Source of the DNA: an uncultured Clostridia bacterium
GTDB taxonomy: Bacteria > Bacillota > Clostridia > Christensenellales > UBA1242
Reading direction: 5' to 3'
Length of the DNA stretch: 64,000 nucleotides
Assembly: GCA_946496065.1 (NCBI GenBank)
Contig: CAMMFF010000005.1
Span: 11,397 to 75,396, forward strand
The position numbers and the translations under genes are program-made. Each line of letters starts with the position of its first letter. Position 1 is the stretch's first letter. The notes below the pieces were generated by a model. That model did not search any database, was not told the origin of the DNA, and saw only the letters and a program-made list of their open reading frames with translations. Below are positions 26,340 to 36,902 of this stretch, piece after piece.

Positions 26340-26368
26340 AGAGAAAGAAAAAAGAGCATTTAGCTCTT
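26340..26368 (-). terminator. weak terminator overlapping the metG stop
   Basis: AAGAGC / GCTCTT stem followed by TTTTTCTTTC on the minus strand. Confidence 0.4.
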
Positions 26369-28087
26369 TAAATCTTGAATATCGAATGGATGTGACAGTT
26401 CTTGCTTATATCTTTCAATGATTTCATCGTCAAGACGAGCAAAAAGTGGTTTAGGCAAGTTTACTTTGTGAGACTTTGAAATGTTGATTTTGCTTGCTTC
26501 TTCCCACATATCTTGTGCATCTGGACGGCCTTCAAAGTTCAGTTGTTCTGTCCAAATTTCAGCTGTTTTGTTAGGGATTATTGGGCTGGCAACAATTGCA
26601 AGAGCTTTTGCCATATTAAGGCAGAGATAAAGCACTTTCTTTGCACCATCGATGTCTCCATTTTTAATCAATGACCATGGTGCGGTTTTTTCAAGATAGG
26701 TGTTTCCAATGCTTGCAAACCTCATAATTTCCTTATATGCCATTCTGAATTCTGTTTTTGAGAACAGTTCTCCAATTTGGTCAGGGAGAGTCTTGATTGC
26801 TTCAATCATTTCATTGTCGTTTTCATCAAGTGAGTTCTTGATATTATCATAATCAATCTCAAGAGCGCCACCAAAATTTTTGTTGATCATGTTCAATGTT
26901 CTGTTGAAGAAATTTCCATATTTCCCAACAAGTTCAGCATTTGTGTTGAGTTTGAAACCTTCATATGTGAAATCGCTATCTTTGTTTTCTGGGAAGATAG
27001 AAACAAGGTAAGCACGCAAAGCATCAATATCAATATCACTGTTCATTAAATTGTTGCAGAAAATTCCGATTTTCTTAGATTTTGAGAATTTTTGACCTTC
27101 AAAGTTGAGGAAGTTGAAACCAACAACATTTTCTGCCAAGTTATATTTCTTGCAAGCAAGCTCCATGCTTGGGAAGAAAATTGCATGGAAGTCGATGTTA
27201 TCTTTGCCAATAAAGTTGTAGATTTTGCAATCTTTGTTTTGCCATCTGTCTTTGACCATTTCATCTCCACCAAGTTCCTTTGTGATTGAGATGTAGCCAA
27301 TTGGTGCGTCAAACCAAACATAGAACACTTTGTCTTGATAATCTTTCAATGGCACTTGAATACCCCAAGGAATATCTCTTGTGATGCAACGAGGTTTCAA
27401 TCCTTCTTTAAACCATTTGTTTGTCATGCTGTAAACATGTGGGCGCCATACATCTTTTTTGCTTTCCACCCATTTTTGAAGTTCAGGTTGAATTTTGTCT
27501 AATGAAACATAGATATGTTTTGTTGATTTTTTAACAGCATCTTTTCCACAAAAACTGCATTTTGGAGACTTCAAGTCGTCAAGTTCGTAGGTTTTTCCAC
27601 ATTGGTCGCATTGGTCGCCATAAGCCTTTTCATATCCACAATATGGACAGGTTCCATAAACAAATCTGTCGGCCAAAGCAATTTTGTCATGTTCACAATA
27701 GAGCATTGTGCTTTCTTTTTCAACTGTGTAGCCGTTTTTATAGATTTCGTTGAAGAAATCTACTGTTGTTTCTTTGTGTGTTTCTGTGTTTGTTCCACTG
27801 AATTTATCAAAACTAATGCAGAGTGTTTCTGCAATTTCTTTGATTTTGGTATTCATTGTGTGAATAAATTCTTCAGGTTTCATTCCAATTTCTTTGGCAG
27901 AGATGAAACTTGCAGTTCCATAATCGTCAGTTCCGCTGACATAAATGACATCATTTCCTTTTGTTCTGTTGTAACGAGCAAACACATCTCCAGGGAGCCA
28001 GCAGCCAACAACATGACCCAAATGTGGAAGCCCATTGACATAGAGCAGTGCAGATGTGACTAATATTTTTTCCTTTTTACTTTCCAT
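26360..28087 (-). CDS. metG: methionine--tRNA ligase
   Basis: HLGH (HIGH), KFSKS (KMSKS) and the zinc knuckle CPYCGYEKAYGDQCDQCG. ATG 28087 has AGGAAG 7 nt upstream. Confidence 0.9.
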   Translation of the reverse strand: MESKKEKILVTSALLYVNGLPHLGHVVGCWLPGDVFARYNRTKGNDVIYVSGTDDYGTASFISAKEIGMKPEEFIHTMNTKIKEIAETLCISFDKFSGTNTETHKETTVDFFNEIYKNGYTVEKESTMLYCEHDKIALADRFVYGTCPYCGYEKAYGDQCDQCGKTYELDDLKSPKCSFCGKDAVKKSTKHIYVSLDKIQPELQKWVESKKDVWRPHVYSMTNKWFKEGLKPRCITRDIPWGIQVPLKDYQDKVFYVWFDAPIGYISITKELGGDEMVKDRWQNKDCKIYNFIGKDNIDFHAIFFPSMELACKKYNLAENVVGFNFLNFEGQKFSKSKKIGIFCNNLMNSDIDIDALRAYLVSIFPENKDSDFTYEGFKLNTNAELVGKYGNFFNRTLNMINKNFGGALEIDYDNIKNSLDENDNEMIEAIKTLPDQIGELFSKTEFRMAYKEIMRFASIGNTYLEKTAPWSLIKNGDIDGAKKVLYLCLNMAKALAIVASPIIPNKTAEIWTEQLNFEGRPDAQDMWEEASKINISKSHKVNLPKPLFARLDDEIIERYKQELSHPFDIQDLKS

Positions 28088-28139
28088 TTTTACACTTCCT
28101 TTTGCATATTTTTTTAGATTGAGAGTTAAACTTATGTTA

Positions 28140-29474
28140 TTATTCTGCATCGGACATGCACATTCGGTCAGTTTTGATCTTTTCGATGACTTTTTCAAGA
28201 GTTAATTTTTCTTGTTCTGAATTTTGCATGTTTTTTAATGTGTATTCTTTTGTCTTAACTTCATCTTCGCCAACAATCAAGACATACTTTATTTGTCTTT
28301 TGTTTGCTTCTTTCATTTTTGATTTGAAAGATTTGTTTTCATAAAGACAATCTGCTTTAATTCCACCTTCTCTGAGTTTTGAAGTCAAAGAAAGTCCTTC
28401 TTCCAAAGTGTCATCAAAAGTGATGATTGCACATTCGATTTCATTGATCTCATCCAAATTGAAATAATTTTCTTTGGTCAATATATCAAAAAGGCGGGTG
28501 ACACCAACACTCATTCCAACACCTGGCATTTTTTTATCTGAAAAATAACTGCACAAATTTTCAAATCTTCCGCCACCACCAATGGCTCCAAGATTTTTGT
28601 TCATTTTCAAAAATCCTTCAAAAACTGTGCCAGTGTAATAGTTATGTCCTCTGATCACGGAAAGGTTATATATGACTGAACTAACTCCAAATGCTTTCAG
28701 ATGTTTGTCAGTTTCAACAAGTTCTCTCATTCCTTCATCAAAAAGAGGATTGTCGCAAATATTTGTCAAATTTTGAGTTACTTCCTCAATATTTCCATTT
28801 GTTTTTGTCAATCTTATGATTTTTTCGCTTTCAACGTCAGACAAACCAATTTCTTTGAGTTGTGCCATTGCTTCTTCAAAAGGAATTTTTGCAAGTTTGT
28901 CCAAAACAATCAAAATGTCTGTTGTTCTGTCTTCCTTGTTGATTGATTGAATGTATCCAGCGATAATTTTTCTGTTTGAAACTTCAATTTCCACATCGAG
29001 ATTCAACGCCTTGAAACATTTTTCAAAAAGTGCAATACATTCGGCATCAGCAACAAGAGATAATGTTTCATTTCCGATTATATCGGCATCACATTGATAA
29101 AATTCTCTGAAACGACCCTTTTGAGGTCTTTCTCCTCTGTAAACTTTTCCAATTTGATATCTTTTGAAAGGAAATGACAAATCTTCTTTGTGCATTGCAA
29201 CAAAGCGGGCGAGTGGAACTGTCAAGTCATATCTCATGCACATATCGGTAGAACCTTTTGAAAAACGATAGACTTCTTTGTCTGTTTCGCCACCACTTTT
29301 GGCAAGCAGTGTTTCGCTATATTCCAAAATAGGAGTGTCAAGTGGAACAAAACAATTTTGTTTGAAAACATTTTCAATCTTGTCCAAAAGCTCAGAAAAA
29401 ACCATCTGCTGTCTTGGCATAAGTTCCCAAAAACCTTGAAGTTTTCTCGGTGTAATAAGCTTTGAATTGTTCAT
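28140..29474 (-). CDS. hisS: histidine--tRNA ligase
   Basis: Class II motifs: RYDLTVPLAR, YRGERPQKGRFREFYQCD, GGGRFENL. Lies 52 nt upstream of metG. Confidence 0.9.
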   Translation of the reverse strand: MNNSKLITPRKLQGFWELMPRQQMVFSELLDKIENVFKQNCFVPLDTPILEYSETLLAKSGGETDKEVYRFSKGSTDMCMRYDLTVPLARFVAMHKEDLSFPFKRYQIGKVYRGERPQKGRFREFYQCDADIIGNETLSLVADAECIALFEKCFKALNLDVEIEVSNRKIIAGYIQSINKEDRTTDILIVLDKLAKIPFEEAMAQLKEIGLSDVESEKIIRLTKTNGNIEEVTQNLTNICDNPLFDEGMRELVETDKHLKAFGVSSVIYNLSVIRGHNYYTGTVFEGFLKMNKNLGAIGGGGRFENLCSYFSDKKMPGVGMSVGVTRLFDILTKENYFNLDEINEIECAIITFDDTLEEGLSLTSKLREGGIKADCLYENKSFKSKMKEANKRQIKYVLIVGEDEVKTKEYTLKNMQNSEQEKLTLEKVIEKIKTDRMCMSDAE

Positions 29475-29567
29475 TTTTTCTCCTTAATTGTCATCATTTT
29501 TTATATGTCATTTTAATACAAAATTCTTCGTTTTGTCAATTGAAATATAGGCATATAATACTAAAAG

Positions 29568-29704
29568 TTGTGCACATTTATTTTCCACTTATCCACAAAT
29601 TTATAAATATTCACACCAATTTATGTTTATACAGGTGGGTAAATTGGGGTCAAAATTGAAGAAAACCACACGAGTTATCCACATTTCCACATTTTTGTGG
29701 ACAA
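29568..29704. promoter_or_regulatory. DnaA-box cluster
   Basis: Perfect TTATCCACA at 29589-29597 and 29675-29683. TGTGGACAA (1 mismatch, opposite orientation) at 29696-29704. Four 2-mismatch boxes at 29568, 29581, 29607 and 29683. An AT-rich tract lies at 29761-29874. Confidence 0.6.
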
Positions 29705-29874
29705 ATCTTTTCAAAAATCACACATATTGGCGAGAAAACGGAATATAAATGTGCAAAAAATCGAGTTTGTTTAAAAATGCAAGTTTCGTCAATTTTGTAT
29801 AAATTTTTAATATCAAAATTCTTTGTTTCAAAAATAAGAATATTATTCAAAATCTATGCATATTAATTCATTCA

Positions 29875-31911
29875 TTATTTTGAAGTTTTCTTCATCAAAA
29901 ATGGACTTGGTGTTTTGTCACTTAAGAAATAAAGTTTGTGCAATGCTCTGGTTGAAGAGACATACAAGAGATTTCTGTCAAGTTCGTTGTGATAGTTTTG
30001 ACTGTTTGCAAATGGAACGATGACGCAGTCAAATTCAATTCCTTTTGCTTTTGCTGGAGTGGTTATGATTTTCTTTGAAGAAATTTTCATATTGTCCATC
30101 ACTTTGAATTTTTTGATTTGTGTGCTTTCTTTTTGAAGTGCTTTGATTTCTTCCCTAGATTTGCATATGATTGCAACACTTTGTTTTTTAAGTTCTGATT
30201 TTTTTTCTCTTTCAGTCAAAATTTTTTCAATTGCCTTGGCACAATTTTTTGTTCTCAAACACTCAACTTCTTCTCCGTTTCTATTCACGTTGTTTGCAAT
30301 GTGTTTTCCAAGAATTTTTTGTGAAAACAGAGAAATTTGCAATGTGCTTCTGTATGACTTATTTAAAAATGTTATTTTTGACTTGGTTTGTTTTGTCAAA
30401 TATGTCAAGTATGTTGGAGTCAGAGTTCTGTCAATGCTTTGATAGATGTCACCAAGATAAAGTTTTGAGCATTTCCAAATTTTGTCAAACAAATAGAAAT
30501 GACAAGGTGTGTAGTCCTGCATCTCGTCAACGATGACATATTTTGCATCAAAGTTGTTTTTCAGTGAAAATAGATTTTCTTTGATTAAAAGCACAGGAGC
30601 AATGTCGTAAGCTCCGATGTTTTCCACTTCATCAAGTTCCAAACTTCTCAAGAAAAGATTGTAAATTCTCAATAAGTCCGTTGTGATGAAATTGTTATAC
30701 AAAATCTTCTTTGCTCTTTTGAACAAGTCATTATGTTTTGATGCAGGAATTTTGAATCTGTCAGTGATATTTTCTGCCAAAACATCAATTCTTTTGTGAA
30801 TAGGCAAGTTTTTAAGTTTGTTGAAATAGATATCTTGATTTTCTGTCTTATTTATGACAACCTCTCCAAAAGAAAGTGTTTTTGGAATAAAAAGATTGCA
30901 AATATCGTTGTTAAGGAAATTTTTCAAATCGTCCAAGAATTCAAAGCTTGACTTTATTGCGATGTTTTCAAAGTCCTTTTGGTTTTGTTTGCTTATAACT
31001 CTTTCAAGCATATCTTCCCTTGACTCAAATTCCATTCCCAAAAGTCGCTTTGCCATGTTTGAAAAAGTTGTTGTGAAAGTTTTTTCTTCTCCCAATGCTG
31101 GAAGAACATCGTCAATATAGTCTGCAAACAATTCAGAAGGGGACAGTATCAAAATATCTTCACTCTTGAGTTGATTGCGATATTTGTAAAGCAAATAAGA
31201 AACTCTGTGCATTGCAATTGAGGTCTTTCCAGAACCGGCAACACCTTGCACAATTGTGTTCTTGAAGTCATCGGCACGAATAAGGACATTTTGTTCTTTT
31301 TGAATGGTTGAAACAATGTCATGCATTTTTGATGTGGCATTTTTTGAAAGTTGCTCCATCAAGATATCGTCGTCGATGACCATGTTGCTGTCAATGTAAT
31401 AAACCAAATTGCCCTTGTCAATCTTATATTGACGTTTTAAGGACAAATTGCCGGATATTTCTCCATCAGGACAAGAATAGGAAGTTTTTCCGGTTTTGTC
31501 GTCATAGTAAAGAGAGCAGACATCAGCTCTCCAGTCATAGACCAAATTTTCATTTTGAGAGTTTTGAATGAGACCTAAGCCAATGTAATATTTATTTGGT
31601 TCTTGTTCATTATCCGCTTGGAAATCAAATCTTCCAAAGTATGGATTTTTTCTTTGTTTTTGAAGTCTTGAGATTTCTTTTTCAAGAGCAACATTTTGTT
31701 GCTCTAAGTTTTCAATTTGAATGTTTAGACCAGCAAGTTCATCGTCTTCTTTTTTTATGTCATAAAAATTTTCGGCGAAAAACTTTTTGAGATATTGAAT
31801 GTCATTCAGGTTTTGTTTATATTTTTTTGAGTCCTTATCTTTGATCTTTTCAATTTCTTTCAAAGTGTTGTCAAGATAAGTTTTCTCTTGTTCTGTTACT
31901 TTTTTGTCCAT
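29875..31911 (-). CDS. helD: HelD / helicase IV-like UvrD-family ATPase
   Basis: N-terminal coiled coil ending in NPYFGRFDF, Walker A GVAGSGKTSIAMHR, and a UvrD-like C-terminal domain. Confidence 0.75.
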   Translation of the reverse strand: MDKKVTEQEKTYLDNTLKEIEKIKDKDSKKYKQNLNDIQYLKKFFAENFYDIKKEDDELAGLNIQIENLEQQNVALEKEISRLQKQRKNPYFGRFDFQADNEQEPNKYYIGLGLIQNSQNENLVYDWRADVCSLYYDDKTGKTSYSCPDGEISGNLSLKRQYKIDKGNLVYYIDSNMVIDDDILMEQLSKNATSKMHDIVSTIQKEQNVLIRADDFKNTIVQGVAGSGKTSIAMHRVSYLLYKYRNQLKSEDILILSPSELFADYIDDVLPALGEEKTFTTTFSNMAKRLLGMEFESREDMLERVISKQNQKDFENIAIKSSFEFLDDLKNFLNNDICNLFIPKTLSFGEVVINKTENQDIYFNKLKNLPIHKRIDVLAENITDRFKIPASKHNDLFKRAKKILYNNFITTDLLRIYNLFLRSLELDEVENIGAYDIAPVLLIKENLFSLKNNFDAKYVIVDEMQDYTPCHFYLFDKIWKCSKLYLGDIYQSIDRTLTPTYLTYLTKQTKSKITFLNKSYRSTLQISLFSQKILGKHIANNVNRNGEEVECLRTKNCAKAIEKILTEREKKSELKKQSVAIICKSREEIKALQKESTQIKKFKVMDNMKISSKKIITTPAKAKGIEFDCVIVPFANSQNYHNELDRNLLYVSSTRALHKLYFLSDKTPSPFLMKKTSK

Positions 31912-31963
31912 GGGAACTCCTTATTCAAAAGGTAGTTTATTTTTGTTGTTCAATGACAGCAAT

Positions 31964-34543
31964 CTAAATGTTTTCGTCGTCACTAGTGTTTTCTTCAGAT
32001 GTTGAAACTTCCGCATTAGTTTCATTTGCATCAGATTCTTCTTCAATTGCGGGTGCAGGTGTCTCTGCTTCAGCAGGTTCCTCTTCTTTTGATGCAAGAG
32101 CAACGCTGGTGATTTTTGCGTCGTTCTTAAGTTTCATGATGCGAACGCCTTGACTCACTCTTGAAAAATGGCTTACATCTTCTGCTGGTGTTCTGATGAT
32201 AACTCCACTGTCTGCAATAATCAAAAGGTCGCAATCTTCTTCAATTTGTTTCATTGCAACGAGTTTTCCAGTCTTTCCGTTGAATATACCAGCTTTAACA
32301 CCACTTCCACCACGTTGTTGAAGTCTGAATTCGTCAACACTTGTAAATTTGCCATAACCATTTTCTGAGATTGTTATGATGTTTGCGTTTTCATGAACTA
32401 TTGCCATGTCAACAACAAAGTCTCCCTCTGCAAGTTTCATGCTGCGAACACCTTGGCTGTCTCTTCCAACGGCACGAACATCGGTCTCGTTGAAACGAAT
32501 GCACTTTCCATCATGGGAGGCAATCAAGATGTCATCACGACCTGTAGTTATGTCAACACCAACAAGTTCATCTCCTTCCACAAGTTTGATGGCAATTTTT
32601 CCAACTTTTCTGATGTTTTCATATTCACTGAGAGTGGTCTTTTTGATGAGACCGTTCTTTGTTGCCATAATCAAATTGCCTTTGACATCTTTTTGCATTG
32701 GAATGATTGCATTGATTTTTTCTCCAAGAGAAAGTTGCAAAAGGTTGATGATTGCACGGCCCTTTGCTTGTCTTTGAGCTTCTGGAATTTCATAGGCTTT
32801 TGCGCTGTAAACCTTTCCCAAATTCGAGAAGAACAAAAGGTCTGCATGAGAAGAGCATACGAACATTTTTTCCACAAAATCTTCATCTTTTGTCTTGTGT
32901 GCGGTGATTCCAACTCCACCTCTGTGTTGAGATTTGTATTCATCAACAGACATACGCTTGATGTAACCCATATGAGTCATGGAGACGATGACATCTTCTT
33001 CTGCAATAAGGTCTTCAATGTCAATTCCACCCAAATCCATGCTAATTTCGGTCTTTCTAGCGTCACCAAATTCTTGTTTGACATTTTCAAGGTCATCTCT
33101 GACAATCTGCAGAACTCTTGCAGGTTTGTCCAAGATGTCCTTCAAATCAGTGATTGTTGCCTCCAAAGTTGCAAGTTCTTCATTAAGTTTTTCAACTTCC
33201 AAACTTGTAAGTTTTGAAAGTTTCATTTCAAGAATGGCGTTTGCTTGAATTTCGTCAAGTTCAAACAAAGTTGTCAAGTTTGTTATTGCCTCTTGTCTGT
33301 CTTGTGATTGTTTGATTGTTTTTATGACTTCATCAATGTTTGCAAGGGCTATAACCAAACCTTTGACAATATGCTCTCTTTCTTCAGCTTTCTTAAGGTC
33401 AAATCTTGTTTTTCTTACGACAACTTCTTTCTGATGTTCAAGGTAATAATAAAGCATTTCCTTAAGGTTCAAAACCTTTGGAACTCCATTCACCAAAGCA
33501 AGCATAATGATTCCACTGCTTTGTTGAAGCATTGTGTGTTTATAGAGCAAGTTTAAAACAACTTGTGCGTTTGCATCTTTTTTTATGTCAACAACGACTC
33601 TAAGTCCATCTCTGTCACTTTCATCTCTTAGGTCGCTGATACCTTCAATTTTTTTGTTTTTAACCATATCAGCCATTTGAGTTATGAAACGTGCTTTGTT
33701 GACTTGATATGGAAGTTCTGTGATGACGATTCTTTGTCTGCCAGAAGATGTTTCTTCAATTTCTGCACGACCTCTGACCAAAATTCCGCCACGACCAGTT
33801 TTGTATGCGTGTTTAACGGCGGTTCTTCCCATGATTATTCCGCCTGTTGGATAGTCAGGTGCAGGGATAATCTTGATAAGTTCATCAATGTCGATGTCTG
33901 AGTTGTCAATCAATGCTTGAAGACCATTGATGACTTCTGTCAAGTTGTGAGGTGGAATGTTTGTTGCCATTCCGACAGCAATGCCGTCTGCACCATTAAC
34001 AAGAAGGTTTGGAAATCTTGCTGGCAAAACGGAAGGTTGCATCAAAGTGTCGTCAAAGTTTGGATAGAAGTCAACCGTTTCTTTGTCGATGTCTTTAAGC
34101 ATCAAAGAAGCAATTTTTGAAAGTCTTGCTTCTGTGTAACGCTGTGCAGCAGGTGGGTCACCATCGACTGAACCAAAGTTTCCATGTCCATCAACAAGAG
34201 GATATCTGATTGAAAAGTCCTGAGCAAGTCTGACAAGGGCATCATAAATTGAAATGTCTCCGTGTGGGTGATATTTACCCATAACTTCACCGACAATTCT
34301 GGCACTTTTCTTGTGAGGTTTGTCATAGAAGTTGTTTAATTCACCCATACTGAACAAAATTCTTCTATGAACCGGCTTCAAACCATCTCTAACATCAGGA
34401 ATGGCTCTTGAAACATTGACAGCCATTGCATAGGAAATGAAAGACTTTTTCAACTCTCCGACAACTTCAATTGGTTGAATTTTTTCATTTTCAAACATTT
34501 CCCTCAGGTCTTTTTTCTTGTTTTCTTCTTCTTTCTTATTCAT
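31964..34543 (-). CDS. gyrA: DNA gyrase subunit A
   Basis: [29 protein letters not shown] active-site region, beta-pinwheel CTD and an acidic tail. ATG 34543 has GAGGA 5 nt upstream. Confidence 0.95.
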
Positions 34544-34865
34544 TTCTTTCCTCAACTTGCAAATTTAAATTATGTGCTTTCACTCTTTCTTTTCCGCGAG
34601 CAAATTTAAAATCTTCAACTTTTGTGACTTCATCTAAGCAGTCAAACATATATATCAATTCTTCAATACAAATCTTGACATCGGCGATTTCTTCAATCAT
34701 GTTCTTCATCAATTTTTTCTCTTCTTCTTTGGAGCAAGCATTGATTTTGCGTTTATATTTGCAGATGGCTTTTGTAAGTTCGCTCATCTCTTCAATGGCA
34801 AAATTCAATTGTGCTTCTTTTCCAAATGCGTCCAAAAAATCTTTGTAATAGTGCTCTTCTCTCAT
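34536..34865 (-). CDS. MazG-like all-alpha NTP pyrophosphohydrolase family protein (109 aa)
   Basis: AIEEMSELTKAI and MIEEIADVKICIEEL match the EExxE / EExxD metal-binding helices of MazG-like proteins. AGGAG overlaps the gyrB stop. Its last 8 nt overlap the gyrA start. Confidence 0.6.
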   Translation of the reverse strand: MREEHYYKDFLDAFGKEAQLNFAIEEMSELTKAICKYKRKINACSKEEEKKLMKNMIEEIADVKICIEELIYMFDCLDEVTKVEDFKFARGKERVKAHNLNLQVEERNE

Positions 34866-34874
34866 CGCTGACTC

Positions 34875-36902
<2,028 letters not shown>

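Follow-up and report, generated by a model that had tools for sequence, protein, structure and literature searches.

The DNA analysed in this study (the window) is a stretch of 64,000 nucleotides that corresponds to C5:11397-75396 of the source genome G000 (1.1 Mb, 34% G+C, 14 contigs), which, like all genomes compared here, is a metagenome-assembled genome (MAG). On the minus strand of the window the gene order is gyrB, a small ORF, gyrA, helD, a gap of 400 bp, hisS and metG. As stated in the original prediction, the gap lies between two co-oriented genes: helD, encoding an RNA polymerase recycling motor (29875..31911, minus strand), has its stop abutting the gap, and hisS, encoding histidine--tRNA ligase (28140..29474, minus strand; ATG at 29474), is the first gene of its operon and faces the element described below. 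Downstream of hisS follows metG, encoding methionine--tRNA ligase (26360..28198, minus strand), whose true start is probably located about 110 nt inside the listed ORF, since family matches begin at residues 41-45. The original prediction had also found no ORF with an SD in the gap. The gap contains just short, unconserved ORFs of 41-66 aa, and alignment indels are not multiples of three, so that a protein-coding function of the gap was rejected. A terminator of helD in the gap was likewise rejected, because the minus strand shows no predicted intrinsic terminator downstream of helD; the sole predicted hairpin in the gap is a palindrome of DnaA boxes on the plus strand. In G000 the essential block gyrB-gyrA-helD-hisS-metG (window 26360-36863) is not encoded on the leading strand as inferred from skew but on the opposite one, and it appears to be head-on to replication, unlike in G006 and G011, in which the same gyrB-to-metG block is co-directional with replication from dnaA. 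The gene-strand split of contig C5 is unusually even (38 plus, 29 minus), with most other contigs being 80-90% biased. The even split and the reversed essential block suggest inversions.

The gap harbors a cluster of putative DnaA boxes, which we describe here in plus-strand direction. It begins with an outlying weak box, TTGTGCACA (29568..29576, plus strand), that has two mismatches to the consensus and one to the relaxed form TTATNCACA; relatives have a conserved 'AAAGTTATnCACA' box at the corresponding position, left of module 1. Module 1 (29581..29597, plus strand) is a tandem double box in which TTTTCCAC is followed by the perfect box TTATCCACA (29589-29597). In most relatives the order is TTATCCACA and then TTTCCACA, with the TCCACnnnTCCACA core being kept; module 1 thus generally reads GTTATCCACATTTCCACA and is swapped to TTTTCCACTTATCCACA in the sub-clade of the source genome. 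Two weak boxes follow on the plus strand: box c, ATATTCACA (29607..29615), which is TTATGCAAA or TTATACAAA in relatives (alignment columns A145-A155), and, 20 nt past it, box d, TTATACAGG (29627..29635), which is TTATGCAAA in relatives (columns A165-A175). In both boxes the AT...TAT.CA columns are invariant among the aligned congeners. A variable spacer of about 35 nt (29636..29672) has no conserved sequence, and its length varies by increments of about 10 bp; a box in reverse orientation (TGTGGATAA or TGTGGACAA) is present in the spacer of many relatives, at differing places. Module 2 is the 19-mer AGTTATCCACATTTCCACA (29673..29691, plus strand), consisting of a perfect box (29675-29683) and the abutting ATTTCCACA, and it is invariant in 22 of 22 aligned congeners. 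Head-to-head with module 2 stands an inverted box with one mismatch, TTGTCCACA (29696..29704, minus strand), and the two form the palindrome TCCACATTTTTGTGGA, which is confined to the nearest sub-clade of the source genome. The remainder of the gap includes the AT-rich 3' flank of helD (29761..29874), in which lies a reverse copy of the weak box, TTATACAAA (29794..29802, minus strand; TTTTGYATAAA in the nearest relatives).

The individual boxes that had been predicted were all recovered: the two perfect TTATCCACA boxes on the plus strand, the inverted box with one mismatch on the minus strand and, by reading of the sequence, the four boxes with two mismatches at 29568 (TTGTGCACA), 29581 (TTTTCCACT), 29607 (ATATTCACA) and 29683 (ATTTCCACA). 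With two perfect boxes, one box with one mismatch and at least four weaker ones within 140 bp, the gap contains a DnaA-box cluster, and about 8-9 putative sites fall within the roughly 140 bp of the element. The two perfect boxes, 86 bp apart, have no further copy in the window, while 14 exist in the whole 1.1-Mb genome; the expected number of perfect-box pairs within 100 nt is 0.016. The window as a whole shows no enrichment of boxes with up to one mismatch (23 found versus 21.6 expected from shuffled sequence). In a genome-wide sliding-window score of box density, the gap and the dnaA-dnaN spacer are the joint top cluster of G000, and in G006 the element is the strongest cluster on a contig of 218 kb, where it scores 5 and the origin spacer 3. 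Within G000, the TCCACnnnTCCACA double box is restricted to the origin, the gap (two copies) and the interior of a gene (one copy). Multiple consensus and near-consensus boxes are therefore found in an intergenic region outside oriC, as in clusters of the DBC type. The AT-rich stretch that had been noted at 29761-29874 is indeed 80.7% AT, but this composition is ordinary for the intergenic DNA of this genome: G000 has 236 intergenic gaps of 150 nt or more, and 111 of these include a 114-nt window that is just as rich in AT. Nothing points to an unwinding element, and the tract was rejected as such.

The element is conserved in dozens of species. Homologues of hisS were compared in 23 congeneric genomes (50-76% protein identity), and in 22 of the 23 two perfect boxes are located 85-95 bp apart near hisS; helD is the other neighbour in all of those congeners. 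The invariant columns of the alignment are exactly the box positions, and the spacer drifts. Among 57 distinct elements, which come from related genomes and are not phylogenetically independent, the module-to-module distance is 94-95 bp in 44, and most others have 85 or 104-106 bp. Distances of about 95, 85 or about 105 bp are whole helical turns and therefore place the two modules in helical phase, with the usual spacing amounting to about nine turns. Distal DnaA boxes are known to act in helical phase (Richardson et al., 2019, PMC6669920). When 400 genomes sampled across 173 genera of the order were examined, only this genus showed the exact two-module pattern; within the genus it is present in 10 of 15 sampled congeners, and some species carry variant copies. 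Related versions exist in other gut MAGs of 1.0-1.4 Mb and, among the matches listed, two-copy elements were found only in gut MAGs with such small genomes. These are labelled uncultured Clostridia, Christensenella sp., Catabacter sp. and similar, and one close relative is labelled Candidatus Caccovivens sp. Literature searches by sequence gave no match for a 17-mer motif, and a word search retrieved nothing relevant that links DnaA boxes with hisS or helD. Taken by its pattern of invariant and drifting positions, the element appears to be under selection as protein-binding DNA.

What is constant around the element is its relation to one operon. On the minus strand, a sigma-70-type promoter of hisS-metG is predicted at 29510..29539, with TTGACA (29539-29534), a spacing of 18 nt and TAAAAT (29515-29510), matching 11 of 12 positions; the SD sequence AAGGAG (29485-29480) and the ATG at 29474 follow. 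This predicted promoter is located 35 nt upstream of the hisS start and 39 nt from module 1; upstream of it, 29 nt separate its -35 hexamer from the start of the box cluster in G000. Within the genus, module 1 and a near-consensus promoter are separated by 29, 39-40 or 50 nt; these classes, about 10 bp apart, were obtained from related genomes and do not count as independent. In more distant lineages module 1 faces metG or mrnC (encoding mini-RNase III), followed by rlmB, and in the lineages with metG or mrnC as the first gene the distance from promoter to module 1 is 44-46 nt. The left operon is always of the [hisS]-[metG]-mrnC-rlmB type, and the right-hand neighbour varies between helD, a membrane protein and rsmG-mnmG. 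Therefore, the constant partner of the element is the 5' end of an operon of the [hisS]-[metG]-mrnC-rlmB type. Together with the conservation and the fixed, phased architecture, this constant promoter adjacency supports the part of the original prediction that proposed a DnaA-binding regulatory or titration site beside hisS-metG.

It is possible, though in our view rather doubtful, that the element is purely a transcription-factor site, at which DnaA would only activate or repress the promoter of hisS-metG(-mrnC-rlmB) with no meaningful effect on initiation. Lineages that differ in the first gene and in the right neighbour all keep the element in one orientation and next to a strong promoter, promoter distances change in steps of about 10 bp, and there are precedents in the sda and dnaA promoters of B. 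subtilis (PMC3245932) and in oriCII-gidA of P. aeruginosa (PMC13438810). However, in G006, G007 and G011 inserted DNA of 0.5-1.3 kb separates the element from hisS, no good promoter-like site was found beside the element in these three genomes, and in G023 the element is located about 1.9 kb from hisS. Both modules nevertheless stay perfect in the insertion-bearing genomes while the spacer diverges, which argues that the binding of DnaA would itself be selected. In addition, known DnaA-regulated promoters manage with fewer than the 8-9 sites present here, two origin-grade pairs among them, and any such cluster necessarily sequesters DnaA. Conversely, the constant promoter adjacency and the phasing in the other genomes argue that the link to the promoter is real. 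The inserts themselves consist of a 205-aa ORF and/or GC-rich tandem repeats (L012:2933-4080 in G007; L013:3200-3500 in G011; an equivalent in G006). The 205-aa ORF is present in G007, the tandem repeats are about 117 nt long, and ...REGCKSYREECELACKSEHDEAISFCR... appears three times in their translation. In these AT-rich genomes the GC-rich repeats are conspicuous and may represent a small mobile or RNA-type repeat.

A second alternative denies the element any relation to DnaA and takes the conserved 19-mers and the TTATGCA motifs as binding sites of another protein or as part of a non-coding RNA or leader. The hisS genes of many Firmicutes carry T-box leaders, and motifs c and d (TTATGCAAA) deviate from the DnaA consensus yet are invariant at AT...TAT.CA; these two weak boxes could bind a different protein. 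An RNA upstream of hisS, T-box or other, was rejected: no Rfam family was detected at E < 1, RNAalifold predicted no base pairs in the consensus fold of 16 elements, and the boxes lie upstream of the predicted promoter and hence outside the leader. Moreover, conservation is strongest at perfect consensus DnaA boxes that match the origin pair exactly, and reverse-oriented consensus boxes arise independently in the drifting spacer, as expected if DnaA binding is the selected property. We therefore regard this alternative as very improbable. Identity to the consensus and the pattern of selection both point to DnaA as the protein that would bind the element.

The original prediction had also offered the gap as a candidate origin, or as an origin half detached from dnaA. 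Of its observations, the lack of dnaA in the window holds true. In the source genome dnaA was found at C1:122386-123702 (full-length match, 493 bits), and dnaN is also located on contig C1. Along C1 the GC skew is near -0.1 over the first 120 kb and near +0.13 beyond 124 kb; the sign thus changes exactly at dnaA, where the cumulative skew also has its minimum (C1, about 120-124 kb). On C5 the skew after strand correction is positive on either side of the gap (left, +0.056; right, +0.064), so that polarity does not change there. The same is observed in G006, in which dnaA (72.3-73.7 kb) and the cluster (131.7 kb) are both located on the 218-kb contig. There, cumulative skew reaches its minimum at dnaA (72 kb), and the arm that contains the cluster is uniformly positive. 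With the skew switch at dnaA and none at the gap, the origin interpretation was ruled out by the criterion that the original prediction had itself set, and the element is not the replication origin. It does not lie beside dnaA/dnaN, the position typical of Firmicutes. The distance between cluster and dnaA is 33 kb in G421, 58 kb in G006 and 61 kb in G011; in G000 it is at least 163 kb and in G005 well over 200 kb, the latter two being lower bounds from contig geometry and skew. A distance to the origin that is not conserved fits poorly with any role that requires closeness to the origin.

The sequence behind the boxes was also compared with the basal unwinding system (BUS), whose published rule requires three 3'-NAN-5' triplets within 16 bp of the box, followed by an AT-rich unwinding element (Pelliciari et al., 2021, PMC8287927). 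By a strict (C/T)T(A/T) trio score, both modules reach 1-3 of 6, which is background, versus 5 of 6 at Bacillus origins; true origins of the Mollicutes type also score low. Under the loose rule a trio-like run can be read after module 1, but this rule is easily satisfied in AT-rich DNA. Since the loose NAN rule is so easily satisfied and Mollicutes-type origins score low, the trio test discriminates poorly. A GC cluster was found after neither module. An active, auxiliary or relic origin (oriC or an origin half detached from dnaA) could claim the same tandem box pair as true origins, an AT-rich tract nearby, the classically origin-linked gyrBA genes and the loosest published trio rule (PMC8287927), but the skew in G000 and G006, the distance to dnaA of 33 kb to more than 160 kb, the background trio scores, the missing GC cluster and the ordinary AT-rich tract leave it practically without credence.

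The origin of G000 itself is poor in boxes. Its dnaA-dnaN spacer contains four boxes with at most one mismatch, and none of this quality was found in the 140 bp upstream of dnaA (C1:123724-123863; L001:2839-2978). The origin therefore looks monopartite, restricted to the dnaA-dnaN spacer, and the classical boxes for dnaA autoregulation are missing. The region upstream of dnaA in G000 faces a divergent gene of 363 aa instead of rpmH. The G000 origin carries AGTTATACACATTTCCACA followed by ccggc, and the origin of one congener carries the perfect 19-mer AGTTATCCACATTTCCACA. An exact scan for this 19-mer in 185,579 species genomes yielded at least 120 loci. Among the matches listed, single 19-mers in the dnaA-dnaN spacer were found in Bacillus, Metabacillus, Lentilactobacillus, Mesoplasma and MAGs of Mollicutes or Bacilli type. 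In Bacillus-type origins a GC cluster follows the 19-mer immediately, with CTA-type triplets and AT-rich DNA next. This combination of 19-mer, GC cluster, trios and AT-rich DNA is the basal unwinding system as defined in B. subtilis (PMC6669920, PMC8287927). The box pair of the element is identical to this origin pair; the element therefore reuses the high-affinity pair of the origin, twice.

Several further observations were made. In a congener whose dnaA is 80% identical, a further box cluster with TTATCCACA, TTTATCCACC and a perfect 19-mer is located about 150 nt downstream of dnaN and not in the dnaA-dnaN spacer (L059:2290-2400). A MAG labelled Lachnospiraceae shows dnaA, dnaN, a double box with an inverted box, and rpmH (L126:1917-5100), the box pair being placed after dnaN and directly upstream of rpmH. 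A dense palindromic array of DnaA boxes (TTATCCACAGTCGATGTGGATAAGTTATCCACATTTCCACA) with a period of about 74 nt was found at about 4250-4500 of contig DASTKE010000407.1 of a Ktedonobacteraceae MAG (L080). The chromosome of a Pseudomonadales MAG (OZ242357.1, 3.6 Mb) has the exact 19-mer at about 0.96, 1.18 and 3.21 Mb (L042, L047, L108), with no dnaA/dnaN match within the 8-kb loci around each site. A second, weak match to the DnaA family in G000 (C3:40363-41133, E 2.8e-13) is a frame of 299 aa that covers profile positions 33-258, the AAA+ part; its product is probably a helicase-loader-type ATPase that lacks the DnaA DNA-binding domain. ParB is present. YabA was undetectable in the genus, and no match at the family cut-off was obtained in 61 genomes across the order, which makes the idea of a tie between the element and YabA loss uninformative; it was set aside.

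In B. subtilis, six non-origin DBCs regulate neighbouring genes and restrain initiation (2012, PMC3245932). Like these, the element is an intergenic cluster of consensus DnaA boxes outside oriC in a Firmicute, it is predicted from its boxes to be among the strongest DnaA sites of its genome, and it is located beside the promoters of neighbouring genes; by analogy a double role in gene regulation and initiation restraint would be expected. In three of the genomes examined it is also near the origin (33-61 kb). In contrast, its distance from the origin in G000 is at least 163 kb, a single dominant cluster exists here versus six, and it adjoins an operon of aminoacyl-tRNA synthetase, mrnC and rlmB. 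Furthermore, its architecture is fixed, with two origin-type pairs in helical phase and conserved weak boxes between them. To our knowledge, neither the position nor the design of the Bacillus non-origin clusters is conserved. With a fixed design at one syntenic site in dozens of species, the element is in this respect nearer to datA and DARS.

The DnaA-inactivating and DnaA-reactivating sequences of E. coli, datA and DARS, are characterized by a specific arrangement of boxes with an IHF (or Fis) site, and stimulate hydrolysis of DnaA-ATP or nucleotide exchange. Like datA and DARS1/2 (reviewed in PMC5742627), the element is a single non-coding DnaA-box locus of defined architecture away from the origin, its position is conserved among related genomes and, by analogy, its role may be to handle DnaA rather than to fire replication. 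However, the box arrangement is unrelated and the phylum is different. Compared with the basal unwinding system of oriC (boxes 6/7 and trios; PMC6669920, PMC8287927), the element has the identical pair AGTTATCCACATTTCCACA, twice and in the same orientation, but it lacks the GC cluster, a convincing trio run, the skew switch and the adjacency to dnaA/dnaN. It looks like the double-strand-binding half of the unwinding system without the unwinding half. A further parallel is oriCII of P. aeruginosa upstream of gidA, whose DnaA boxes control the gidAB-parAB promoter (PMC13438810). Both are origin-like clusters that are not working origins and have boxes just upstream of an operon promoter, and in a related lineage (L098) the element adjoins rsmG-mnmG, which are gidB-gidA. 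On the other hand, oriCII is located within the origin region, and the number and arrangement of boxes and the regulated operon differ.

From the observed anatomy, conservation and non-origin status of the element, we consider it probable that it is a conserved non-origin DnaA-box cluster, similar to a DBC, which would sequester DnaA and modulate the adjacent promoter. Potentially, DnaA would occupy both high-affinity box pairs, after which the weak sites would be filled cooperatively, and an oligomer across the phased sites may form a stable complex on double-stranded DNA. This complex would leave the DNA unopened, since neither pair is followed by a convincing trio run or an unwinding element. 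In this way the element might sequester or otherwise handle DnaA away from the box-poor origin and would thus serve as a brake or buffer on initiation. At the same time, its position 29-50 bp upstream of the -35 hexamer of a strong promoter, in steps of about 10 bp, could allow it to tune transcription, so that the translation-apparatus operon hisS-metG(-mrnC-rlmB) might respond to the status of DnaA.

It is tempting to go one step further and to regard the element as a 'decoy origin', a locus similar to datA or DARS in which two phased origin-type loading pairs, stripped of the unwinding half, would set the level of free DnaA and couple the operon to the replication cycle. We consider this more specific reading speculative and on balance unlikely. 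If it were true, a DnaA oligomer unable to open DNA would fix the level of free DnaA in genomes with just four boxes at the true origin and none in the dnaA promoter, and the expression of hisS, metG, mini-RNase III and rlmB would be coupled to the replication cycle.

In a few model bacteria, DnaA-box clusters outside the origin are known to buffer the initiator and to regulate genes. Here, a single, precisely built element has stayed in one position in dozens of uncultured gut Clostridia species, whose genomes are about 1 Mb in size and have a box-poor origin, and in which no YabA was detected. If DnaA binds as predicted, the probable DBC-like cluster would offer a compact and testable model of initiation restraint in minimal Firmicute genomes. 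It would also represent a natural split of the double-strand-binding half of the origin module from its melting half, and it would call for caution with origin-prediction tools, which would score the element as high as the true origin.
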